A stretch of DNA of 64,000 nucleotides from the IMG/VR virus record IMGVR_UViG_3300025389_001063. One strand, 5' to 3'. Under the pieces are notes generated by a model. It worked only from the letters and a program-made list of their open reading frames with translations, made no database searches and had not been told where the DNA came from. Positions 26,481 to 36,946 of this stretch are shown piece after piece (position 1 is the first letter of the stretch; each line of letters begins with the position of its first letter). The DNA is from a virus. Lineage: Duplodnaviria > Caudoviricetes. Both the position numbers and the translations under genes were made by a program.

Positions 26481-26484
26481 TTTG

Positions 26485-26506
26485 ATAAATATCCTATAGA
26501 AGGATA
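26485..26506 (+). promoter_or_regulatory. Late promoter overlapping a short hairpin that covers the SD
   Basis: ATAAATA 26485-91; TATCCT(26490-95)/AGGATA(26501-06). Confidence 0.5.
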
Positions 26507-26511
26507 GAACC

Positions 26512-26835
26512 ATGAAAATTCTTGAACTTATGGAAGCAGTTACTCAAAGCGACTTCATGAGAGAAGATTGGCAAAAAGTCAATAAGAAAGATAAAACAGA
26601 CGGTATGAGTAAAAAAGCCGTTAAAGCCTATCGCCGTGAACATCCTGGCAGTAAACTAAAAACTGCTGTTACTACCAAACCAAGCAAATTGAAAAAAGGT
26701 TCTAAGGACGCTAAAAGACGCAAGAGTTTCTGTGCTAGAATGAGTGGCATGAAAAAGAAAAATGCTAGTGCTAAAACTAAGAGAGATCCAGACAGCCCAA
26801 TCAATAAGGCATTGCGTCGTTGGAACTGTGAGTAA
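26512..26835 (+). CDS. Basic Lys-rich protein, putative internal head protein
   Basis: MKILELME N-terminal motif; KRRKSFCARM...KALRRWNC is a type I recognise from T4-like cyanophage hypotheticals. Confidence 0.6.
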   Translation: MKILELMEAVTQSDFMREDWQKVNKKDKTDGMSKKAVKAYRREHPGSKLKTAVTTKPSKLKKGSKDAKRRKSFCARMSGMKKKNASAKTKRDPDSPINKALRRWNCE

Positions 26836-26837
26836 TT

Positions 26838-28871
26838 ATGTTTTTAAGAGAATTCTTTTATAGATCAAACCCAATTATTATTGAAGGTGGTAATGTACAA
26901 ATTGGCCCGCACAGTGCGGAAAGAATCAATTTGAAGAAAATTCCACGCAATCAAATTGTTCCGATTATTGACAATCTATTACATTCAGTCAATTCTGCTT
27001 TCCAATCAAAATTTAAGACTCCACTTTGGTCGCCACAACTACTACAGAAAAAAGAATTCCTCAGTGGATCGGCATTTCACTTTCTCAATCCAGGAATTCC
27101 AGATGAAAAATTTGTTCAACATAAACCTAGTGTTGGAGATATTGACACAATGGTTGATAAAAATAAAAGAGAACAAGTAGAACAATTTTTAAATTCAGTT
27201 ACAAACAAAAAGATTGGTCCTGCTACATTACTTGGCTTTAAACCTAATCCTGGAGGTGATCAATTTATTACATTATGGGAATTCAGTGAGCCACCAATCA
27301 AGATACAAATTGATTTAGAACTTGTAGAATTCCACGGTGCTGGTCCAAGTGAATGGTCAAAGTTTAGTCACTCTAGTGATTGGGCAGACCTCGAAGCAGG
27401 TGTTAAAGGAGTATTCCACAAATACTTATTAAGAGCATTTACTACAAATACTCTCAAAGATCGTCTCGTACAAATGAAAACAAAACTTAAACCAGTTAAG
27501 AGTACAGACGTTGCCTTTGCTGTTACTGGTGGTATGAGAGAAAAATATAAACCAGTTTTAGATGCTAATGGTAAACAAAAAGTTGTAGACGGGTTACCTG
27601 TATATACAGAAGTTCCAGCAAAAGACTCAACATATGTTAATTCAACAGAAGGCATGTTTGAATTAATATTTGGTAAACCACCGGTAGGAGGAGAAGAAAA
27701 ACTCCTCGGTTCATTTATAGGTGGATTACAATTAGCAAACAAATATCTTGATGATGAACATAAAAAGTTATTGCTAGATGGTTTTGTTAATACACTATTT
27801 GGACAAACTGCTCAAGAACTTTATAAAGGTGATCCAGAATCAGATCGTGCTGAAAAAGAAGTTGCTCTCAAAACTATGCTTGAAAAATTAGGCATGAAGA
27901 TGGACACAAATATACAGCAAATGGAAAAGTCTTTTTACAGTAATTATAAAATGGATGAAGAATTAGACGAAGAGGAAGTTGTTTCAAGTCGTCGTACAGG
28001 AATTAGCCATCTACAAGGTATGAAAGATTTAGAGTTTATTGAACTTATTAAGAAAATTAAAAACGAATATCAAGGTAAATTAAGCAACGTAAAGATGACT
28101 CTTAAAGTTGATGGTCTCGGTGCTCGCTTTGGTAAAGACGCAGAAGGTCGTCCATTTTTTGAAAGTTCAAGAAGCGGACCAATCTTTACAGCAGGTTCAT
28201 TTATATCACATGCTAAAAGCAGAGGATTTGAAGGTGAAAAACTTGCTCGTGCTGAAAAGTATGACGAAATTTATAACCTAGTCGTTAACAGTGACTTTGT
28301 TAAGAAGTTACCTAATGATATTAAAATTCATTGTGAGATACTTTATAATCCAATGGCAGAAGAAACAGAGAATGGCTTGAAGTTTGTCACAGTTTCTTAT
28401 GATAGAAAACTACTAGGCGAAGTAATGACTATTGTTCCATTCTACGCAGAAGTTGCTTCTACTGGACAAAAGTATTCTAAGAGTGAACAAATTAAAGACG
28501 AACTAATTAGATCTGGTAGTGGTAATGGTATTAAATTTGTTGATGACAGATTAATGTCAGACACTATCGATATTACTGGCGAAATTGATCCATTACTAAC
28601 AATGATCAACGATCGCTTTATTGCTAAACTTACATCAAGAACTAAAGCAGACGCTGAAGAAAAGTCGCAACTAAAGGCTATGGTTCAAAGTGTTAAGGAC
28701 AATTTGGCAGATTATATCTTTAGACATCCAAGCATTGCTGGTAAAGATAAATTGGGCAAAGACATTGAAGGTATTATACTTCATAGAGATAAAGAAGCCC
28801 CACTAAAGATCACTACTCCAGATTTTAAGCAAGCAATCGCAGCAAAGAAGAACCCAAATGTTGTTAAGTGA
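26838..28871 (+). CDS. Two-domain protein: Pol-beta-like nucleotidyltransferase plus RNA-ligase-like (KxDG) domain
   Basis: N half SGSAF...GDIDTMVD...IQIDLE; C half TLKVDG (motif I), HCEILY (III), EGIILH (IV), LKI (V); halves joined by acidic MDEELDEEE. Confidence 0.6.
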   Translation: MFLREFFYRSNPIIIEGGNVQIGPHSAERINLKKIPRNQIVPIIDNLLHSVNSAFQSKFKTPLWSPQLLQKKEFLSGSAFHFLNPGIPDEKFVQHKPSVGDIDTMVDKNKREQVEQFLNSVTNKKIGPATLLGFKPNPGGDQFITLWEFSEPPIKIQIDLELVEFHGAGPSEWSKFSHSSDWADLEAGVKGVFHKYLLRAFTTNTLKDRLVQMKTKLKPVKSTDVAFAVTGGMREKYKPVLDANGKQKVVDGLPVYTEVPAKDSTYVNSTEGMFELIFGKPPVGGEEKLLGSFIGGLQLANKYLDDEHKKLLLDGFVNTLFGQTAQELYKGDPESDRAEKEVALKTMLEKLGMKMDTNIQQMEKSFYSNYKMDEELDEEEVVSSRRTGISHLQGMKDLEFIELIKKIKNEYQGKLSNVKMTLKVDGLGARFGKDAEGRPFFESSRSGPIFTAGSFISHAKSRGFEGEKLARAEKYDEIYNLVVNSDFVKKLPNDIKIHCEILYNPMAEETENGLKFVTVSYDRKLLGEVMTIVPFYAEVASTGQKYSKSEQIKDELIRSGSGNGIKFVDDRLMSDTIDITGEIDPLLTMINDRFIAKLTSRTKADAEEKSQLKAMVQSVKDNLADYIFRHPSIAGKDKLGKDIEGIILHRDKEAPLKITTPDFKQAIAAKKNPNVVK

Positions 28872-29532
28872 ATTATTTGAAGCAAGCACAGAAGTTGCTA
28901 TTATATTTGGAAGGTTTAATCCTCCACACAAAGGTCATAAGGCTGCGTGGGAAATTGCTGCCCAATCACCAATATGGTATATAGGTACCAATAAGTCCAC
29001 CATTGGACCAAAAGATCCTTTGCCTTATGATGTTAAGATTAAAGCAATGCAAGTAATTTGGCCAGATATTAAAGGACACATTGTTGCTGAACAAAGTTGG
29101 CTAACTCTTTGCTCAAGAGTATTCGAAGAACACGGTGATGTTATTCTTAATGTTGTTACTGACGAAGAATATGTTTTTAAACTCATTGCACAATATAACG
29201 GTGTAGAAGGTAAACAACATGGATTTTATAAATTTACAACAATAAATCCAAAACCTAGTCCAAGAATAAGTTCTGCTACTGACCTAAGAGCCGCAGTTAC
29301 TAACGATAATCCAGATGCGTTTGCTAAGGCTGCTGGTGTTCCTGCTGATACATTAATTGCTGGTGTTCCATATTTTGAACTTGTAAAAAAATATATGACC
29401 CCAGACCCTAAAGTTAAAACAAAGAAAACAAAAGAAGAATGTGCCGGCGTTGGTATTGTAACAAAACAAAACTCTACAGCAGATGTTGGATCTGGAACTA
29501 TTAAAAAGAATATGAAGGCGTTTAAATTATGA
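28858..29532 (+). CDS. HIGH-motif cytidylyltransferase/NMNAT-like nucleotidyltransferase
   Basis: FGRFNPPHKGH, DPLPY, ISSATDLR. Confidence 0.8.
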   Translation: MLLSELFEASTEVAIIFGRFNPPHKGHKAAWEIAAQSPIWYIGTNKSTIGPKDPLPYDVKIKAMQVIWPDIKGHIVAEQSWLTLCSRVFEEHGDVILNVVTDEEYVFKLIAQYNGVEGKQHGFYKFTTINPKPSPRISSATDLRAAVTNDNPDAFAKAAGVPADTLIAGVPYFELVKKYMTPDPKVKTKKTKEECAGVGIVTKQNSTADVGSGTIKKNMKAFKL

Positions 29533-29732
29533 ACATTAAAGAACTTCAAAAATTAGCAGGTATTACATCTGAAGAAAAGACAGATGAAAATATTTCTACT
29601 GCTTATGCTGATAAACGCAAGAAAGAAAAAGAAGAAAACATATCACCAGGATCAGATGAATGGTTCAAACTCTGGTTCAAAAGAAAACCAGGTCTAGGCA
29701 TGCCCCCAGTATTTCGTGGAAGAAAAAAATGA
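29529..29732 (+). CDS. Small hypothetical protein
   Basis: MNIKELQKLAGI motif; coupled to both neighbours by ATGA overlaps. Confidence 0.6.
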   Translation: MNIKELQKLAGITSEEKTDENISTAYADKRKKEKEENISPGSDEWFKLWFKRKPGLGMPPVFRGRKK

Positions 29733-30856
29733 GATTAAGAGAAGTATTTGAAGATATACAAGGACCAGGAGTTACAACTGCTCCATTCTTAAAGGATGGA
29801 CCTCTTAAGGTTTCTAAACACTTTACAAGTCGTCTTAAAGAGAGAGATTTAGATCTAAAAACTGTTGCTCGTTTTATTAGCAAAGCAATTAAAAAGAATA
29901 AAGCAGAGATAGAAGCACTTCCAGTTGATACATCATTTATTCTAAAATCTAAAATAGGTTTAGGTGTTGCTATTGTTAAACAAGAAACTCCAGATGGAAT
30001 TGTATACTTGATTAATACAGCTCATCCACAATTTAGTGTTGGAGCAAATCAAGAAGTATTTTTAGGTGATAGTAAACTACTTGATAAGAAGACTCCAACT
30101 ATCGGAGAACTTGCTGAAAAATATCACACAAGTCTTATTGCTGTTGAACTTCAACTTAAAAAAGGCATCAAGGTTGAAATGGAACACACTAAGAAACACA
30201 GTGTGGCAAAAGAAATTGCTTTAGACCATTTGGGAGAAGATTTATATTATTATGAAAAATTAGCCAAAGTAGAAAAAAATGAGTCTTGTGGACCTAGTTG
30301 TACCTGTCCAAAATGTAAAGCAACAAATGAAGGTCAATTTAGAGCAGATGATGTTGAGGAATTCAAACCGAGTAAAAGTCAATTAGGCGATCTAAAATCC
30401 AAATATCTCCCAGATTGGGAAATGTTAGATCATAGAATTCTACAAGCAGATTATAATGCTAAAGATCATAGACATGCTGAAAAGTTTATTGAGAGAATCA
30501 ATAAAATTAGTGAAGAAATGGATCATTTTTGTGAAGTAACTCAAGATGTTGCTGAAGTTACAGTAAAGACTACAACATCAGATGTTAAGGGGTTAACACT
30601 TTTAGATTTCCAAATTGCCATGCGTATAGATAACTTGGCAGAGAAAATGGATATTGAACAGATCCGTTCAAAAGGTAATTTTGATGAAAACTTTGCGGAC
30701 GGAAAAGGTCCAGGTAGACCAGGAGATAGTGCTAGACACGGCATACCTAAAGGTGCTACAATAGCACAGTTAGAAAAGGCATCAAAGGCAAAAGGACGCA
30801 AAGGTCAATTGGCACGTTGGCAATTGAATATGCGTAGAGGTAAAAAGAAAGGCTAA
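29729..30856 (+). CDS. Multidomain protein including a pterin-4a-carbinolamine dehydratase-like domain
   Basis: Likely start MRLREVFE (ATGA overlap). LPDWE...F...I..ISEEMDHF.EV...V.V...T.DV.GLT.LDF.IA..ID is PCD-like; also GIKVEMEHT...EIALDHL.E...YY module and a basic C-terminal module. Confidence 0.6.
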   Translation: MRLREVFEDIQGPGVTTAPFLKDGPLKVSKHFTSRLKERDLDLKTVARFISKAIKKNKAEIEALPVDTSFILKSKIGLGVAIVKQETPDGIVYLINTAHPQFSVGANQEVFLGDSKLLDKKTPTIGELAEKYHTSLIAVELQLKKGIKVEMEHTKKHSVAKEIALDHLGEDLYYYEKLAKVEKNESCGPSCTCPKCKATNEGQFRADDVEEFKPSKSQLGDLKSKYLPDWEMLDHRILQADYNAKDHRHAEKFIERINKISEEMDHFCEVTQDVAEVTVKTTTSDVKGLTLLDFQIAMRIDNLAEKMDIEQIRSKGNFDENFADGKGPGRPGDSARHGIPKGATIAQLEKASKAKGRKGQLARWQLNMRRGKKKG

Positions 30857-30858
30857 AA

Positions 30859-31209
30859 ATGTATAACAAAGTTGATGATAGATCTGAAGAAATGTTTATT
30901 GGATGTGAATGTAATTCCCCGGCACATATTATTCGTGTTAGTTATTGGGACTGGGGATTAAAAGATTCTCCTGAATTTTATTTTGAACTCCAAAGCGATA
31001 TGCCTCATAGTTTCTTTACACGAGTAAAGAAGGCTTTTAATTATATATTCTTTGGTACTCGTTTAGATTGGCACGATGTTATTCCTAAAGCAGATGATCT
31101 TCGTAAACTCCAGATTCTTATTTCTAAATATTTAGATCGCTATGATCATTATGAGGCTCATTGTAAGATTGAATGGAAAAAGAAAAAGGAGTCAAATGAA
31201 ACTATTTGA
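30859..31209 (+). CDS. Hypothetical protein
   Basis: 116 aa; CECxxxxH near the N-terminus. Confidence 0.55.
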   Translation: MYNKVDDRSEEMFIGCECNSPAHIIRVSYWDWGLKDSPEFYFELQSDMPHSFFTRVKKAFNYIFFGTRLDWHDVIPKADDLRKLQILISKYLDRYDHYEAHCKIEWKKKKESNETI

Positions 31210-31738
31210 ACTTAATCAAAACATAGGGAAACATGTTCCTGAAATCTATGTCGACATGGATGGTGTACTTGCTGATTTCTTTGGGGAGTGGGCAAAATTA
31301 GATGGTGTAGATCATTATAAAGATATTGATAATCCAGAAGCAAAATTAGCTCTAGTTAGAGAACATCCAAACTATTGGATTAATCTTCCTGTATTACCAA
31401 ACGCAGGTAAATTAATGGGATTTATTAAAAAGAATTTTGGACACTATAATATTTGTTCAAGTCCACTTGCTGGTGATCCACAATGCGAACCACAAAAGAG
31501 ATTGTGGGTTAAGAAACATCTAGCAGGCTTTCCACCAGATCATGTAATCATTACAGAAAACAAAGCAGCATATGCTACACAAGCAGACGGATCACCAAAT
31601 ATTTTAATTGATGACTTTGGTAAAAATATTGCCGCCTGGAATAACGCAGGCGGCATTGGTATCAAACATAAAGATCATAAATTAGATAGAACTTTAAATG
31701 AATTAGCAAATTATATAAATGCTAGATCTCAAGCATAA
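31196..31738 (+). CDS. HAD-family 5'(3')-deoxyribonucleotidase-like phosphatase
   Basis: YVDMDGVLADF (DxDxV), SSP, K, LIDDFGKN; start MKLFEL with AAGGAG. Confidence 0.85.
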   Translation: MKLFELNQNIGKHVPEIYVDMDGVLADFFGEWAKLDGVDHYKDIDNPEAKLALVREHPNYWINLPVLPNAGKLMGFIKKNFGHYNICSSPLAGDPQCEPQKRLWVKKHLAGFPPDHVIITENKAAYATQADGSPNILIDDFGKNIAAWNNAGGIGIKHKDHKLDRTLNELANYINARSQA

Positions 31739-31956
31739 TCTGGATCAATATTATCTGGATCGATTTCAATAATGATTTTTCCGTCTTCGTCGTAAATCTT
31801 TACTTTATCTGCTTCTAGTTTCTTTGCAAATTCTAGTGCTTCTTCGTAAACTAAGAAAGAGAACAATTCAAGTTCTACTTCTTCACCTTCATGAAATTTA
31901 AAAGATTTCATCTTAAATGGGTACGTGTGATATCCCCAATCGATTTTTTTGGTCAT
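31729..31956 (-). CDS. Small hypothetical protein (paralog of 31984-32172)
   Basis: EEALEFAKKLEADKVKIYDEDGKIIIEI; AGGAG SD. Confidence 0.6.
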   Translation of the reverse strand: MTKKIDWGYHTYPFKMKSFKFHEGEEVELELFSFLVYEEALEFAKKLEADKVKIYDEDGKIIIEIDPDNIDPDYA

Positions 31957-31983
31957 TTATTTTCTCCTATAATTATTATATAT

Positions 31984-32172
31984 TTAAGCGTAAGTGGTAG
32001 GTGAGTCTGGAATTATTTCGTGTATTAATTCGCCAATCTCATTGTAAATTTTAACGGAATATGCTTCTACCGTTCTTGCAAAAGCAATAGCATCTTGTTC
32101 TAATTCAAAGAAAAAATGTTTAGATTCTACAATACCATTATTCCAATTAAATGTTGTAGTCTTGAATTTCAT
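31984..32172 (-). CDS. Small hypothetical protein (paralog of 31729-31956)
   Basis: QDAIAFARTVEAYSVKIYNEIGELIHEI; both proteins end in YA. Confidence 0.6.
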   Translation of the reverse strand: MKFKTTTFNWNNGIVESKHFFFELEQDAIAFARTVEAYSVKIYNEIGELIHEIIPDSPTTYA

Positions 32173-32174
32173 TG

Positions 32175-33233
32175 TTACTCTCCGTTAAAATATTTTACCC
32201 AAATATCGCGGGTGTTATTAGTATAATTAGTCAAATTCTTCTGATTTATTCCCACATTCTGCTGTGGGAAATTATATGCTTTTATAATTTGTTCAGCAAT
32301 GTTTTTACTGTCAACTGGATTAGCATTAAACTCTTTACAACTCCACGGTATTTCATTAGATCCTACAAGAGGAACACCTTGACTTATAAGATCAGCACCA
32401 ACAATATTAAATGTTTCACTGAAACTAACTTGTAAGCCAATATCCATTGTAGCACATAATTCTAGAAATTGTTCTCTAGGGCGCCACTCATGTGATATCA
32501 TTTCATGCCCACTATCTATAAGTTGAATAAACAGTCCACGTAAATTATGTAATACAGCATCCCCCTTCATTTCAATACGTCCAGCATTAATATGAAATCT
32601 TAATTTTTTATTAAGAATTTTACAAGAATCAAGTGCTCCAAATGCTTGTAATAAGTGATTTTTTAGTGGACGAACTGCACCAAAACAACAAATGTCTAGA
32701 TGTTTTTTATCTTTGTTAAATTCTTTAGTTACATAGTCTTGAGGATAGTAGTTTGGCATGTAAACTATTTTTTCTTTAATTTTATCTTTATCCCATCCCA
32801 TTTTAATTTTAGCATAAGTTTTAATTTCGTGCATCATACGTGGGGCATTAATTCCTAATATGATATTTGGAAATGTAAAATAATCTCCAATCCAATTCAT
32901 TGCGATTCCTTCGCCTGCTAGGAAAGGCATTTCACTGTGTAGTCGTATAATCCAAGTAATTTTAGGATGCAACTTTGTTAAAATATAAAATTTACTAGGA
33001 ACAACCCAAAGTGCTTCAATAATAACATGAGTTGGTCTATGCTTTGTGACTAACTTATCTATACAGTTATTATCTATTGCTACTTCCATCTCAGATTCTA
33101 TTCCAGAATCTTTTAACATTTGATCCATAAAACTGGCACTATTATAAAGTCCAGTACTTAATCCTTTTGCATTGTGTTTGACAAGGTCGTAGTCTTCTCT
33201 TCTCTTCAAAATGAATAGAACACGTTTTTTCAT
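32175..33233 (-). CDS. GT-B fold glycosyltransferase (GT4-like)
   Basis: FGAVRPLKNH and VSFSETFNIVGAD...GVPLVGS motifs; late-type ATAAATA on the minus strand at 33262-33268. Confidence 0.7.
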   Translation of the reverse strand: MKKRVLFILKRREDYDLVKHNAKGLSTGLYNSASFMDQMLKDSGIESEMEVAIDNNCIDKLVTKHRPTHVIIEALWVVPSKFYILTKLHPKITWIIRLHSEMPFLAGEGIAMNWIGDYFTFPNIILGINAPRMMHEIKTYAKIKMGWDKDKIKEKIVYMPNYYPQDYVTKEFNKDKKHLDICCFGAVRPLKNHLLQAFGALDSCKILNKKLRFHINAGRIEMKGDAVLHNLRGLFIQLIDSGHEMISHEWRPREQFLELCATMDIGLQVSFSETFNIVGADLISQGVPLVGSNEIPWSCKEFNANPVDSKNIAEQIIKAYNFPQQNVGINQKNLTNYTNNTRDIWVKYFNGE

Positions 33234-33298
33234 AAAACTCCCGTCTGTAAATCTTTCCGTCTATTTATCGACACATATATCTTTGGTGAGAAAAGAAC

Positions 33299-33305
33299 AT
33301 AAATA
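33299..33305 (+). promoter_or_regulatory. T4-late-like promoter, divergent from the GT4 promoter
   Basis: ATAAATA upstream of ATG 33328. Confidence 0.55.
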
Positions 33306-33327
33306 TTAGTAAAGAAAGGGCAGCAAC

Positions 33328-33597
33328 ATGAAAATAAAAGAACTTATCGAAGCAGCCACAGCAGGTGCTACATCCTCAGGAAGTATAGCAACAGTTGTAA
33401 GCCCACAATTAAGCCCAGGTAAAGCACGTGGCAAAACATCTTATACAGGATCACCAGGAAAAAGTGGAACAAAGGCTCCACCACAACCTAAGGTAGTACA
33501 ACCTAAATCAAAACTAGGTACTACTAAAAATGCTCTCGATATGAAGGCAAACATCTTTGGTCAACCCAAAGAAAGCGTAACAGTTATAAAGAGATAA
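33328..33597 (+). CDS. Basic low-complexity protein, putative internal head protein
   Basis: MKIKELIE|AATAGATSSGSIA. Confidence 0.6.
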   Translation: MKIKELIEAATAGATSSGSIATVVSPQLSPGKARGKTSYTGSPGKSGTKAPPQPKVVQPKSKLGTTKNALDMKANIFGQPKESVTVIKR

Positions 33598-33599
33598 TC

Positions 33600-34316
33600 A
33601 TGCTGCTACGCGATTTCGTTGAACAACATGTTTCTGATGCCGTTGTGTTCCACGATGAACTTAATCCTGTCTTTTGGACTAATAATAAAATGAAGCCTAT
33701 GATTCGCTATAAACTTTTACAAGTTGCTATGGATTTTGTCAAGTTCATAGGTGTTAAAGAATTAGGTCTCACAGATGTTATTATGACTGGATCAAACGCC
33801 AGTTACAATTATACAAAGCATAGTGATGTTGATCTACACCTTGTAGTTAAAATTCCCGATAGCGATGTATTCAAGCAATTATATGACTCCAAGAAGGGTC
33901 TTTGGAACGAACAACATGACGTTAAAATTAAAGGGTATGACGTTGAAGTTTATGTTCAAGACGCCGATGAGCCTCATATAAGTTCAGGCATGTACAGTAT
34001 ACTTAACGACGAGTGGATTAAAGAGCCAAAGCCCGTTAAGCCTAAAATTAATGATATGAGTGTTGAACACAAATATGAAGAAATTCATGCTGCTATTGAA
34101 GAAGCAGTTCATGATGGTGATAAAGCCAAGTTAGAAAAACTCAAAGACGATATTAAAAAGATGCGTCAAAGCGGTCTCCAAAAAGAAGGAGAATTTAGCG
34201 TTGAGAATTTGGTTTTTAAGATGTTGCGTAATCTAGGTGACATGGATATGTTAGTCAATGTTATAGCAAGGTTGCGTGACAAAGAACTCAGTATAGAACA
34301 CGTTCACGAGGAGTAA
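33600..34316 (+). CDS. Pol-beta superfamily nucleotidyltransferase
   Basis: TGSNASYNYTKHSDVDLH (GS...DxD) and VEVYV; MLLRDFVE N-terminus. Confidence 0.75.
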   Translation: MLLRDFVEQHVSDAVVFHDELNPVFWTNNKMKPMIRYKLLQVAMDFVKFIGVKELGLTDVIMTGSNASYNYTKHSDVDLHLVVKIPDSDVFKQLYDSKKGLWNEQHDVKIKGYDVEVYVQDADEPHISSGMYSILNDEWIKEPKPVKPKINDMSVEHKYEEIHAAIEEAVHDGDKAKLEKLKDDIKKMRQSGLQKEGEFSVENLVFKMLRNLGDMDMLVNVIARLRDKELSIEHVHEE

Positions 34317-34321
34317 TCACA

Positions 34322-34612
34322 ATGACATATGAATTTGATACACATCAGTCCACAAATAAAATTAATTGGGCTGATTTCGATCTCTTATGGGAAAATTATT
34401 ATACCGTCAGAGCCATACCTCGTGGAAATCTCAAGAAAAAAGCCTTATCCTATATCGACGAACATGAGTATAAAAACGGCTGGAGTAAGCATACACAACG
34501 TAAACTTGTGGTAAAATCAAAGAAGATCAGAAAAAGTTCCAAAAAGGCTGATCGTATGTTTGACTCGCAGTTAACCGATATGGTCAACTGGTACATCCAC
34601 TTTTACCAGTAA
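34322..34612 (+). CDS. Hypothetical protein
   Basis: 96 aa; GAGGAG SD. Confidence 0.55.
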   Translation: MTYEFDTHQSTNKINWADFDLLWENYYTVRAIPRGNLKKKALSYIDEHEYKNGWSKHTQRKLVVKSKKIRKSSKKADRMFDSQLTDMVNWYIHFYQ

Positions 34613-34614
34613 GG

Positions 34615-34647
34615 ATAAATATTAGTAAATTATAAGGATTTACTAAT
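34615..34647 (+). promoter_or_regulatory. Late promoter followed by a 10-bp hairpin overlapping the SD and start codon
   Basis: ATAAATA 34615-21; ATTAGTAAAT(34621-30)/ATTTACTAAT(34638-47). Confidence 0.55.
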
Positions 34648-36328
34648 GAACCTTTCTGACCTGTTATCTGAATCTGAAATTCAGCAACTAGACGAGTTAA
34701 AAGCAGGAAAGTATGCTCATATAGCGAGTTTATTAGGTGCTCTTGCTGCTCAACACGGTGGCAAGGCAGCTGATGCTGCTACTGTTGGTTGGAAGCAACA
34801 AGCACCACATGCTTTAGCAACATTAGCAACTTATGCCGATACTAAAAAACTAGGTGCCCTACCTGCTACATTAAGTTCTGACGAACTTAATAGAGATGAA
34901 GACGAATTAAGACGTAGAGAAAAATATAGAAAAATTGGTAGATTAGTTTCTCCTAAAGATGAAAGTTTAGACGAGGGTGTAGTTGCCCGTAGAGGCAATA
35001 AAGTAATTCTTGGTTCTCTAGAATTACAACTTTATCCAGATCATGTTTTTTATGTAGTTAATGGTGGGAAAGAAGCAGATCTAAGCATTTATAAGGACGG
35101 AGCGTTTAAGCCTCCTCGCAATAATGAAATCTATTTGAAGGATGCTGGTAAGCATGGCGTTCCAGACGTATTCTCAAAGGTAATTGCTAAATTCTTTGCT
35201 ACTCAAAGCATAGATGATGTTGTTAATGATTTAGAAACTCTATATAGAAATCATGTTAAGAAAGAAGATTTAGACGAAGGAAAGTATAATGAACTTTTCC
35301 TTAGAGGATTAGTTGGTGCTATTATGGCAGGTGGAATTTCTTATGGTATCGATTATGCCAAAGAGAAAACTGCTGATCTTGATAAAGCAGGATTACACGC
35401 ACTTTATAAAAGTATCGATCCACACGAATATAAACAACTTACACAAAAAATACCACTCAAAGACAAAAAAGGTCTTAATTCTATATTAAGCAAATTGAAG
35501 GAACATGCCATGAAAATGGAAGATCTAGATGAAGGTTGGGTATCTATTAGTGATCCTAAAACTGGTAAAACAAACACTTATGGTAAAAAGCCAAAAGAGA
35601 AACCAGAAGTCGGTGAACCAGGAACTAATTGGCAGAAACATTCTAAACAAGGTGGTAGTAAGATATCACTTACTAAACCTATTGAAGAAGGTAATAAAGA
35701 AAATAAAGCAAAGAAGAAAGAAGTTATTCCACCAAAAAGTCGTCCTAAAGATAAGATGAGTTCATTTGATCCACGTAAAGATCTTAAAATGAGAGAAAGT
35801 GAATACGACGGTGAAGGATCTTTCTTAAAGAATGAATTACAGACTATTGCTAGAGTTGCTACTCACCTTGCTCGCGATTTAGACAATGACGAGAATGTTC
35901 CAACATGGGTAATATCAAAGATATCACAAAGCAAAGGTATGCTTGTTGGTGCTATGGATTATATGATTAGCAAACATGAACGTGGTATTCAACCAATGGA
36001 TGAAGAAGAAAAGGATTGGTCAAGTCGTTATAGAGTAGGTTGTACTCTTGTTGATCGTAATTCACCTGCTGCTTCTAACAGAAATAAAAAGATCTTTAAG
36101 AATGTTTGGGTAAGAGCAGAAGACGAATTTGATGCTAAAAAAGTTGCTCAAATCTATTATCGCAAAAAAGGATACAGTGTAATTAATTGCGAAATTACAA
36201 CTCCAAATGAATCAATGAGTGAAGAAAAGCAAAGACTTGATGCTAAATGCTGGAAAGGTTATCGCAAGGCTGGAACTAAAATGAAGGGCGGCGTCAGAGT
36301 TAATAATTGTGTTAAGAGTGGAAAATAA
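34646..36328 (+). CDS. Modular protein / putative polyprotein of internal head peptides
   Basis: Unrelated 40-100 aa modules separated by LDE|G, IEE|G, MRE|S, MDE|E and MSE|E. Confidence 0.55.
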   Translation: MNLSDLLSESEIQQLDELKAGKYAHIASLLGALAAQHGGKAADAATVGWKQQAPHALATLATYADTKKLGALPATLSSDELNRDEDELRRREKYRKIGRLVSPKDESLDEGVVARRGNKVILGSLELQLYPDHVFYVVNGGKEADLSIYKDGAFKPPRNNEIYLKDAGKHGVPDVFSKVIAKFFATQSIDDVVNDLETLYRNHVKKEDLDEGKYNELFLRGLVGAIMAGGISYGIDYAKEKTADLDKAGLHALYKSIDPHEYKQLTQKIPLKDKKGLNSILSKLKEHAMKMEDLDEGWVSISDPKTGKTNTYGKKPKEKPEVGEPGTNWQKHSKQGGSKISLTKPIEEGNKENKAKKKEVIPPKSRPKDKMSSFDPRKDLKMRESEYDGEGSFLKNELQTIARVATHLARDLDNDENVPTWVISKISQSKGMLVGAMDYMISKHERGIQPMDEEEKDWSSRYRVGCTLVDRNSPAASNRNKKIFKNVWVRAEDEFDAKKVAQIYYRKKGYSVINCEITTPNESMSEEKQRLDAKCWKGYRKAGTKMKGGVRVNNCVKSGK

Positions 36329-36564
36329 TGGCAAACCTAACAGTACAAACACCTTACAATCCAAATAGACCAACTAACCCAGAAGATCCAAATGGTATTG
36401 CTCATGCTGAAAGTGCTAATCCCGCTGATACACAGAAGGATCGTGCCGCAGCAAAGAAGTCTTGGGCACAATATGTCCAAGATTGGAAAGTAGCACAACA
36501 AACAGGTGATAGTTCAGGTCCAGCACAGTTTCCAACAGGAACAGTAATTTATCCAAACGATTGA
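36328..36564 (+). CDS. Hypothetical protein
   Basis: 78 aa; overlaps the upstream stop. Confidence 0.55.
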   Translation: MANLTVQTPYNPNRPTNPEDPNGIAHAESANPADTQKDRAAAKKSWAQYVQDWKVAQQTGDSSGPAQFPTGTVIYPND

Positions 36565-36569
36565 TTAAA

Positions 36570-36576
36570 ATAAATA
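36570..36576 (+). promoter_or_regulatory. T4-late-like promoter
   Basis: ATAAATA, AAGGA SD, ATG 36596. Confidence 0.5.
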
Positions 36577-36595
36577 CACTAACAAGGATTTTATT

Positions 36596-36946
36596 ATGAA
36601 AGTAGACGAATTAATCAAAACCATCCTTAACATGGTAGACAAACAGGAAAATCCTGAAGGTGTTGTTAAGACCGATGCTGATACAAAGCGTCTAAAGCCA
36701 GTAGAAATTAAGAATCAAAAAGGTGCTGAACAGGCAGCCGAAGCAGGCGATCACAATGCTCAAAAGAAATGCGATGGTCAGCAAATAATGACTTTTCCGC
36801 TACAACAAAAACACGAACTATTAAAGAAAACAGTTGATGTACCTAATCAATTTGATAAACAAGAAAATGATGAATTAAACCGTATTAAGAAAATGGCAGG
36901 TCTAACAATTATACATCACGATGATTCAACACCATTTGATGATTAA
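36596..36946 (+). CDS. Hypothetical protein
   Basis: MKVDELIK N-terminus; [12 protein letters not shown] resembles ELQKLAGI of gene 29529. Confidence 0.6.

Follow-up and report, generated by a model that had tools for sequence, protein, structure and literature searches.

We identified a cluster of leader-bearing genes whose products we read, with roughly even confidence, as a split three-enzyme protein plus an accessory nucleotidyltransferase (NTase), carried in the phage head and acting in extend-and-seal end repair. The core would comprise a PolX-like NTase, a KxDG RNA-ligase-type enzyme and a HIGH (NMNAT/PPAT-like) NTase, with a minimal Pol-beta NTase nearby as accessory. We established the folds, catalytic motifs, fusions and linkage, leader statistics and promoter motifs of these genes (Table 1). 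The window, a stretch of 64,000 nucleotides, comes from a 107-kb record covering about 28% of the genome of its source, a giant uncultured T4-like phage.

The original prediction named four tagged ORFs as (i) a Pol-beta-like NTase fused to a ligase-like domain, (ii) an NMNAT-like HIGH enzyme, (iii) a HAD phosphatase, and (iv) a second Pol-beta NTase. All four ORFs and their motifs are present on the + strand where they had been placed, and every domain call was upheld. The cargo had been called "dominated" by nucleotidyl transfer, which holds in the sense that four NTase domains occur in three of about ten tagged genes, along with one nucleotidase. The N-terminal motif common to these genes is genuine and forms a cluster, with ten ORF starts bearing it in 26512-36946 and very few in the record's other 97 kb or so. 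As to interpretation, the packaged cargo stood with the domain calls, and the Pnkp/Rnl1 analogy and stand-alone NAD+ rescue did not.

Domains of the tagged enzymes and their linkage

Table 1. Features of the tagged locus, in window coordinates
Feature	Position	Strand	Remarks
Late-promoter -10 motif GATAAATA	26484..26491	+	T4/cyanophage type; 27 nt before first tagged gene
Small basic DUF6321 protein	26512..26835	+	First tagged gene; Pfam DUF6321 E 6e-13
Leader of NTase-ligase protein, 16 residues	26838..26885	+	Ends I-I-E before G17-G18-N19; predicted capsid-targeting propeptide with prohead-protease site
Pol-beta-superfamily NTase domain, aa 17-294	26886..27719	+	Family X palm and thumb likeness; G77-S78, D101, D103, D159/E161
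Helical linker, aa 295-375	27720..27962	+	Joins both catalytic domains; DSSP of model
Covalent nucleotidyltransferase (RNA-ligase-type) domain, aa 376-677	27963..28871	+	K423-V-D-G and further motifs (see text)
HIGH-superfamily nucleotidyltransferase, 224 aa	28858..29532	+	HxGH (28927-28938), SSATxLR
Tagged protein with DUF5661, pterin-4a-carbinolamine dehydratase domain and basic tail module	29729..30856	+	Pfam
NT5C-type HAD 5'(3')-deoxyribonucleotidase, 180 aa from tagged Met	31196..31738	+	Motif I D-M-D-G-V at 31253-31267
Late-promoter motif CATAAATA	33298..33305	+	29 nt before tagged 89-aa gene preceding second NTase
Second Pol-beta-superfamily NTase, 238 aa, with leader	33600..34316	+	NTP_transf_2, minimal/MNT-like; Pfam, phrog_36119

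The 677-aa NTase-ligase protein gave a confident model (pLDDT 89), in which a Pol-beta/Pol-mu-like palm-thumb domain is followed by an RNA-ligase-type domain. In the N-domain, G77-S78, D101/D103 and D159/E161 (hG[GS], DxD and the third carboxylate) are invariant, the carboxylates lying on strands 101-107 and 153-163, and the modelled fold is a palm plus thumb like that of the Pol-beta superfamily and family X. The 8-kDa lyase and fingers of a complete PolX are absent; the domain begins at residue 17, and only the palm/thumb of Pol beta was matched. The RlaP HMM PF10127 did not match the N-domain in hmmscan at E 0.1, nor anything in the whole record at E 10. Motif I of the ligase-type domain is K423-V-D-G (K423 codon at 28104-28106), with K423, D425 and G426 invariant in 45 homologs. 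Motifs III (E500), IIIa (F516/Y521), IV (E644-G645) and V (K657), assigned by eye without superposition, are likewise invariant and in the correct order; motif V reads K657-x-T659, a single lysine with T659 in the place of the expected second one. No Pfam or NCBIfam model matched this domain, and its profile found no ligase in the PDB. Its modelled fold is that of a nucleotidyltransferase with no OB domain after it. Foldseek aligned the helical linker, at low TM, with the DNA-binding helices of DNA ligase IV or with domain Ia of LigA.

The HIGH gene overlaps the NTase-ligase gene by 14 nt; its product starts with a separate leader, in which L-F-E stands at 6-8, and carries a conserved tail module at its C-terminus. 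G18, H24, G26, H27, S139, T141 and R144, which make up the HxGH and ISSTxxR-type motifs, are invariant or nearly so. The 238-aa NTase matched Pfam NTP_transf_2 (PF01909) at 22.7 bits (cut-off 21), as fits an MNT-like enzyme; G64-S65 (33789-33794), D76-x-D78 (33825-33833) and E116 are all invariant and belong to 33 invariant residues in the family. The folds and the invariant catalytic residues count in favour of our main reading. Two further tagged proteins accompany this set: the DUF6321 protein, whose leader is M-K-I-L-E-L-M-E, and the DUF5661 protein, whose gene overlaps a 67-aa gene by an ATGA start/stop and parts of which occur fused into NTase-ligase relatives.

We compared the arrangement of these genes across 80 IMG/VR loci. 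The HIGH domain and the NTase-ligase lie in the same ORF in 75 and in separate adjoining ORFs in 4; hence, a single conserved three-enzyme protein is present in the window in split form. In the giant relatives P0377, P0381 and P0387 the 238-aa NTase, too, is fused to the NTase-ligase (45-49% identity), and in cyanophages S-CREM2 and S-CRM01 a homolog is found two genes away from the HIGH enzyme. A fusion in a polyvalent cargo protein can mean co-delivery and not a common pathway (PMC5512222). The cultured Xanthomonas phage X1 and Stenotrophomonas phage Ps15 carry an untagged operon of N-domain, a gene of unknown function, ligase domain and HIGH NTase. Because these homologs lack the leader, packaging is unnecessary for enzyme function.

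Probable substrate and function of the core

Inside the cell, the most likely task of the core would be "extend and seal" repair of ends, comparable to that of RlaP together with an RNA ligase. Nucleotides missing from a 3'-OH end would be put back by the PolX-like domain. Breaks with 3'-OH and 5'-phosphate ends would be closed by the ligase domain by way of adenylylated K423, with RNA a more probable substrate than DNA, and the HIGH domain would provide or regenerate an adenylylated cofactor for these reactions. We know of no precedent for a HIGH domain in repair. RlaP (PF10127), which is found beside RNA ligases, extends damaged 3' ends of RNA by 1-2 NMP (bioRxiv 10.64898/2025.12.29.696909; PMC7824862). 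Both systems couple a Pol-beta-superfamily NTase to an ATP-dependent RNA-ligase-type enzyme, a pairing recurrent in large phages. Unlike RlaP, the N-domain here gives no PF10127 match and resembles a PolX palm-thumb, and a single chain holds both NTase and ligase, with a HIGH NTase joined on and a capsid tag.

Phosphatase plus ligase had originally been likened to T4 Pnkp/Rnl1 repair, an analogy that our results do not support. The tagged start of the HAD gene is an internal Met at 31196, not 31142. The protein matched Pfam NT5C (PF06941) at 33 bits (cut-off 24.8), phrog_2643 at E 6.6e-26 and the human cytosolic and mitochondrial dNT structures (cdN/mdN) at E 1.5e-5, and its DMDGV, Ser, Lys and DD motif supply HAD motifs I-IV. 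A PNK-type HAD, as in the T4 Pnkp 3'-phosphatase, is not supported, since NT5C was the sole family listed at E 0.1. Linkage to the ligase gene is loose: this mononucleotidase gene lies near it in 10 of 80 loci and is fused to it in none. The tagged proteins contain no Walker A motif, and thus no polynucleotide kinase, nor is there a 2',3'-cyclic/3'-phosphatase among them. [quoted passage not shown] The NT5C phosphatase would be a nucleotide-pool enzyme merely co-located in the cargo locus. What the system shares with T4 Pnkp and Rnl1 is a phage ligase of the same superfamily, which may counter RNA-cleaving defences; in contrast to those early genes, the genes here are predicted to be late.

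The substrate could instead be DNA, which we consider unlikely. A PolX-like gap-filler and a ligase would then travel with the phage genome and mend its nicks, gaps or restriction cuts after injection, much as BER or NHEJ does, with parallels in ASFV Pol X plus ligase and in Pol mu/lambda plus ligase IV.

Less probable still is a set of enzymes that transfer nucleotides to host proteins or to small-molecule signals instead of repairing nucleic acids; the minimal NTase might, for example, AMPylate HEPN-type toxins or other defence proteins, with nucleotide messengers formed or removed by the KxDG and HIGH enzymes. The nearest PDB entries to the 238-aa profile do point this way, being an MNT-type minimal NTase (2rff, E 0.0095) and the AMPylase DrrA (E 0.026), but both matches are weak and non-significant. 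T4 Alt is a precedent for an injected protein modifier, and Iyer et al. predict protein NMPylation by the Pol-beta NTases of injected polyvalent proteins (PMC5512222). Against this, polynucleotide ligases are the best match of the ligase-type domain, which also retains their motif set, and a PolX-like palm-thumb is typical of enzymes acting on nucleic-acid 3' ends.

NAD+ rescue had also been proposed. We regard as very unlikely a stand-alone form of it, in which the 224-aa enzyme would act apart from the ligase as an NMN adenylyltransferase that restores NAD+ in the face of NADase defences (NARP2-like). The enzyme's GRFxPxHxGH and SSATxLR motifs recall archaeal NMNAT, NadM and NadR; the top 50 Foldseek hits are all NaMN/NMN adenylyltransferases (NadD/NadM/NMNAT); the best PDB profile matches are NadM, MJ0541 and NadR, though non-significant (E 0.017-0.07); and some homologs are labelled NMNAT by JGI. 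However, the protein falls under every curated cut-off (NCBIfam NMNAT NF002243, 13.2 bits vs 127; Pfam PF01467, 17 vs 21), and VIA structure comparison scored PPAT as an equal match (12.8, joint best with archaeal NMNAT at 12.8). Fusion of the HIGH domain to the ligase protein in most relatives argues against this reading, as do the absence of NAMPT from the 107-kb record (some 28% of the genome) and the NadE-NMNAT-NAMPT cluster of Xanthomonas phage X1, which is separate and 25 kb from its ligase-linked HIGH gene.

A different link to NAD+, to which we give similarly little probability, is that the AMP donor of the ligase-type domain is NAD+ rather than ATP, with the obligately attached NMNAT-like domain regenerating NAD+ from released NMN and ATP. 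If true, this would be a self-fuelling sealing enzyme, delivered pre-made by the head and still active after Sir2/TIR-type defences have destroyed the cell's NAD+. As a variant of this idea, the HIGH domain might add NAD-, FAD- or dephospho-CoA-type 5' caps that the other two domains process.

Leader, late-promoter motifs and predicted packaging

Among the best 120 homologs of each of three unrelated families, 98, 100 and 99 carry the leader M-x-L-R-E-[LF]-F (about 83%). We therefore have the pattern expected of capsid targeting, a short N-terminal leader (10-16 residues) common to unrelated proteins; T4-type capsid-targeting leaders are 10-19 residues long (PMC9026906; T4 CTS biology is reviewed there and in PMC3012670). 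The NTase-ligase family has 205 leader-bearing members, whose leaders end at a median position of 16, with E directly before GGN in 201 and L or I at -3 in 185. A further 47 members are leaderless and start directly at (M)GGN. The leaders thus end in (L/I)-x-E directly at the domain start, exactly where leaderless homologs begin, which we take as a predicted prohead-protease site. A prohead protease gene was not found in the 107-kb record, a search that was uninformative.

The promoter motifs point to late expression. On the + strand, the 12 copies of ATAAATA compare with an expectation of about 28, and 10 of them sit 26-36 nt upstream of a gene start. Its [G/C/A]ATAAATA forms precede the tagged units as well as structural and fibre genes and are depleted elsewhere; the tagged genes are themselves flanked by fibre genes. 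Position and depletion support late expression, as judged from sequence. GATAAATA probably drives the unit from 26512 through about 31738, within which we found no convincing + strand terminator. In cyanophage S-CREM2, gp154 (HIGH) and gp156 (NTase) lie behind a TATAAATA motif and were detected by MS in CsCl-purified virions, though the authors caution that non-structural proteins, when abundant, may be carried along in the purification of virions (PMC10665884).

The claim of packaged, injected cargo accordingly has four independent supports: the leader, the (L/I)-x-E site, the late-promoter motifs and the virion MS of S-CREM2 homologs. From these we infer leader cleavage and injection, and from the domains, substrates and every activity. 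Each protein would be made late with its T4-type leader, cut after (L/I)-x-E by the prohead protease, carried in the head in trimmed form and ejected with the DNA. That these are ordinary late cytoplasmic enzymes, with an N-terminus serving translation initiation, folding or turnover and virion detections due to contamination, is highly improbable: the X1 and Ps15 homologs do work without a leader and the co-purification caveat is on record, but the leader is conserved as protein sequence in three families unrelated to one another, finishes with a protease-type site where leaderless homologs start, is missing from the fused copies of the small NTase, and belongs to genes lying between fibre genes behind late-promoter motifs.

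Relation to known phage cargo

T4 IPI-III and Alt carry a capsid-targeting sequence, are processed by gp21 and are ejected with the DNA. Like them, the tagged set combines a short leader on unrelated proteins, a cleavage-type site after Glu, predicted late expression and a variable locus, and, as with Alt, the cargo is enzymatic. Unlike them, it consists of NTases and a ligase-type enzyme, where the T4 set has small basic inhibitors and an ADP-ribosyltransferase; its leader follows a different consensus, and processing and ejection are predicted.

The polyvalent proteins of Iyer, Burroughs, Anand, de Souza and Aravind (2017) are a second parallel, with the same predicted fate of delivery with DNA; relatives reaching about 2,100 residues chain together varied enzymatic and small modules, which are separate genes here. 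Targeting, however, is via a T4-type leader here and via MuF or portal fusion there. That survey reported no RNA-ligase association, and its Pol-beta NTases are mainly in Firmicute mobile elements (PMC5512222). S-CREM2 gp154, the virion-associated "cytidylyltransferase" of T4-like cyanophages, shares the HIGH family (profile E 1e-20, at only about 30% identity to our HIGH protein and over the N-terminal part), the late promoter and a small NTase neighbour (gp156), but cyanophages lack the NTase-ligase partner. The module had been called undescribed, which is fair of its biochemistry and not of its parts, akin as they are to T4 CTS cargo, polyvalent proteins and RlaP with RNA ligase.

In the extend-and-seal reading, the tagged enzymes probably enter the cell together with the DNA, ready to lengthen and join the ends of broken nucleic acids. 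Such pre-made enzymes would still work where the host has already blocked translation.

Genomic setting, leader and predicted late promoters

The window corresponds to the minus strand of an IMG/VR viral record of 107,488 bp, for which CheckV estimates 28% completeness. Blocks of fibre-like structural genes flank the studied region on both sides. In related contigs, the homologous locus has a DnaJ, deformylase and ClpB block on one side and DNA polymerase on the other. No match was returned when the region was compared by blastn with 50,697 phage records. The four enzyme ORFs of the original prediction were all found on the plus strand: the NTase-ligase, a HIGH-motif NTase, a HAD phosphatase and a 238-aa NTase. 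A scan of the plus strand of the cluster revealed no convincing terminator inside it. We note that the late plus-strand cluster is broken by an opposite-strand ORF of 352 aa; this ORF belongs to no family, gives faint glycosyltransferase hints and has no homolog in 80 related loci. A 116-aa Cys-rich ORF without the leader also lies within the cluster and weakly matches phrog_12660 ("virion structural protein", E 0.0035).

Positions of the features discussed (window positions unless a related locus, L001 to L007, is named)
Feature	Position	Strand	Remarks
Leader-bearing genes (10)	26512-36946	+	
NTase-ligase, 677 aa	26838-28871	+	two PHROGs, function unknown
HIGH NTase, 224 aa	28858-29532	+	
Tagged DUF5661/pterin-4a-carbinolamine dehydratase protein	29729-30856		dehydratase domain, Pfam E 1.4e-17
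Cys-rich ORF, 116 aa	30859-31209		
HAD protein	31196	+	Met of tagged start
Opposite-strand ORF, 352 aa	32175-33233	-	
238-aa NTase	33600-34316	+	
Mobile basic modules, window	26512-26835, 29434-29529, 30683-30853, 36212-36325		
Mobile basic modules, related loci	L001:16216-16410; L003:15824-16018		
Tagged 463-aa HAD protein	L003:14436-15827		related contig
Middle gene, phage X1	L005:6014-7018		
Middle gene, phage Ps15	L007:4414-5358		
Predicted late promoters, [G/C/A]ATAAATA (starts)	3019, 10103, 16069, 18472, 22488, 26485, 33299, 34615, 36570, 41422, 57162		

The ten tagged genes begin M-x-[ILVM]-x-[ED]-[LFVIM], and very few such starts occur elsewhere in the 107-kb record. The leader also occurs beyond this phage: among the top 120 homologs of each of three unrelated enzyme families, 98, 100 and 99 have it, with the consensus M-x-L-R-E-[LF]-F. 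In the NTase-ligase family it ends in (L/I)-x-E immediately before an invariant GGN, at a median position of 16: leader-bearing members (n = 205) have E at -1 in 201 cases and L or I at -3 in 185, and 47 further members, including the protein of Xanthomonas phage X1, begin exactly at (M)GGN. L/I-x-E is the cleavage consensus of the T4-type prohead protease. In T4, internal proteins reach the prohead core by means of propeptides of 10-19 residues, which gp21 cleaves off after a Glu (PMC9026906, PMC3012670). The prohead protease model PF03420 had no matches in the record, but it had none in the controls either.

The motif TATAAATA is absent from the 64-kb window, where 11 copies are expected. 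The plus strand has just 12 copies of ATAAATA versus approximately 28 expected, and 10 of these 12 precede a gene start by 26-36 nt. They do so at structural and fibre genes and at the genes beginning at 26512, 33328, 34646 and 36596, each the first of a tagged unit. The [G/C/A]ATAAATA set is predicted from sequence to be a clean map of the T4-type late promoters of this phage. Together with virion proteomics of homologs (described below), the clustering and conservation of the leader, the cleavage-type site and the late-promoter motifs support the tagged proteins as putative head cargo.

Domains of the tagged proteins

The 677-aa NTase-ligase has more than 400 metagenomic homologs, and the family of its N-domain, the Pol-beta/PolX-like palm-thumb portion, comprises 738 cluster representatives. 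Pfam and NCBIfam searches placed the protein in no family. In an alignment of 45 homologs, the invariant residues include G77, S78, D101, D103, D159, E161, K423, D425, G426, E500, E644, G645 and K657. The AlphaFold2 model has a mean pLDDT of 89, and the fold match of the N-domain is middling. We assign the C-terminal domain as a putative ligase based on its modelled fold and its motifs. Motif V contains a single lysine (K657-x-T659), and no OB domain follows it, as in RNA ligases. A profile of this domain found no ligase by sequence, and neither phmmer nor profile searches against PDB sequences produced a significant hit for the 677-aa protein, its ligase domain or the 238-aa protein. We ruled out RlaP as the identity of the N-domain (no HMM match) and the 238-aa NTase as its paralog (BLASTP E 1.4).

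The HIGH NTase profile reached a best E-value of only 0.017 against PDB sequences. Matches in Pfam, PHROG and PDB sequences identify the HAD protein as an NT5C 5'(3')-deoxyribonucleotidase. The 238-aa protein belongs to the NTP_transf_2 enzymes, and its GS and DxD motifs are invariant; the viral family that contains it has clusters of more than 1,000 members. DUF5661 and a pterin-4a-carbinolamine dehydratase domain occur together in another tagged protein, which would be an unusual enzyme as head cargo; the N-terminal part of that protein is fused immediately before the small NTase in the giant relative P0377. At the same locus of a related contig, a tagged 463-aa protein bears the classic HAD DxDxT motif (F-D-I-D-D-T-L), and it may be a different phosphatase in the slot held here by the NT5C enzyme.

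Linkage and fusion of the enzymes

Among the homologs of the 677-aa protein, many span 870-2,100 residues and have the HIGH domain as their C-terminal part. We used profiles to search the ORFs of 80 IMG/VR loci encoding an NTase-ligase relative. The HIGH NTase was part of the NTase-ligase ORF in 75 loci, a separate ORF in four and absent from one. The corresponding counts were 4, 13 and 63 for the 238-aa NTase, and 0, 10 and 70 for the NT5C HAD protein. In the window, the NTase-ligase and HIGH genes overlap by 14 nt and have one leader each. Based on these fusion counts and the overlapping genes, we consider the window to hold a conserved three-enzyme protein in split form. To our knowledge, this near-obligate fusion of the HIGH NTase to the NTase-ligase is without precedent, and it poses a biochemical puzzle.

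Two cultured phages (Xanthomonas phage X1 and Stenotrophomonas phage Ps15) encode the three parts as individual neighbouring genes without leaders, and the linkage is therefore not merely co-packaging. An unassigned gene of approximately 320-334 aa sits between their N-domain and ligase-domain genes. Despite its K-V-D-G string, we rejected the X1 copy as a ligase relative (hhalign probability 0.2%), and comparison with Pfam and PDB found no relation. The 238-aa enzyme also lies inside three giant relatives (P0377, P0381 and P0387) at 45-49% identity, where the fused copies lack its first 14-15 residues.

Short conserved basic C-terminal modules shuffle among these proteins (GVGI-TKQN...KAF-L, NFADGK-PGR-G, CWKGY...NCV tails and DUF6321). 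They can form the tail of a protein, stand alone as tagged genes of 64 aa, or be inserted between the NTase and ligase domains, as in the relatives P0365 and P0391.

In cyanophages S-CREM2 and S-CRM01, the genes for a homolog of the 238-aa enzyme and for the HIGH enzyme are two genes apart. The HIGH profile matches S-CREM2 gp154 (E 1e-20), which has the TATAAATA motif immediately upstream, and gp156 is 39% identical to the 238-aa enzyme. Mass spectrometry detected gp154 (annotated "cytidylyltransferase"), gp155, gp156 and gp160 in CsCl-purified S-CREM2 virions, with the authors' own warning of possible contamination; they also describe cytidylyltransferases as frequent in cyanophage virion proteomes (PMC10665884). 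The virion protein gp160 bears one of the mobile basic modules.

Possible activities and significance

A Pol-beta-superfamily NTase beside an RNA ligase represents an already established repair logic. Jumbo phages commonly encode RlaP, which extends the damaged 3' end of an RNA by one or two nucleotides ahead of ligation (PMC7824862; bioRxiv 10.64898/2025.12.29.696909). By analogy, the architecture of the NTase-ligase suggests the same extend-and-seal chemistry as RlaP plus ligase, though its N-domain is not RlaP by HMM; here the enzymes would be delivered pre-made.

As to the substrate, the modelled core fold favours RNA ligases. DNA is still in play, as argued by the PolX-like partner domain and by Foldseek alignments to ligase IV and LigA that include the helical linker. 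The proposed likeness to T4 Pnkp/Rnl1 healing and sealing is not supported: there is no kinase, and the sole phosphatase is a loosely linked mononucleotidase. Sealing by the NTase-ligase without help would therefore be limited to 5'-phosphate/3'-OH breaks. The tagged proteins of the window contain no Walker A motif; one occurs in 8 of the 80 fused relatives, perhaps by chance. NAD+ rescue by a free-standing HIGH enzyme, also part of the original prediction, is unlikely, as 75 of 80 relatives have the domain joined to the ligase in one protein, X1 has a NadE-NMNAT-NAMPT cluster separate from its ligase-linked HIGH enzyme, and no NAMPT was found within the 107-kb record (itself incomplete, at 28%). 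Speculatively, the ligase could use NAD+, with the HIGH domain regenerating this NAD+ from NMN.

The pieces themselves are known: T4 cargo with capsid-targeting leaders, polyvalent injected proteins (described earlier, PMC5512222), RlaP-ligase repair and a virion-associated cyanophage cytidylyltransferase. We found no account in the literature of a protein joining PolX-like, Rnl-like and HIGH enzymes, and Pfam has no model for either large domain. If an injected extend-and-seal module is true, many T4-like aquatic and giant phages would inject functional nucleic-acid repair enzymes with their DNA, and the T4 internal-protein idea, which covers inhibitors and an ADP-ribosyltransferase, would come to include a full enzymatic repair kit. 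It would account for the recurrent "cytidylyltransferases" of cyanophage virion proteomes and give two large families without a Pfam model a testable function. Phages would thereby have a means to overcome defences that halt translation before their own repair genes are expressed.
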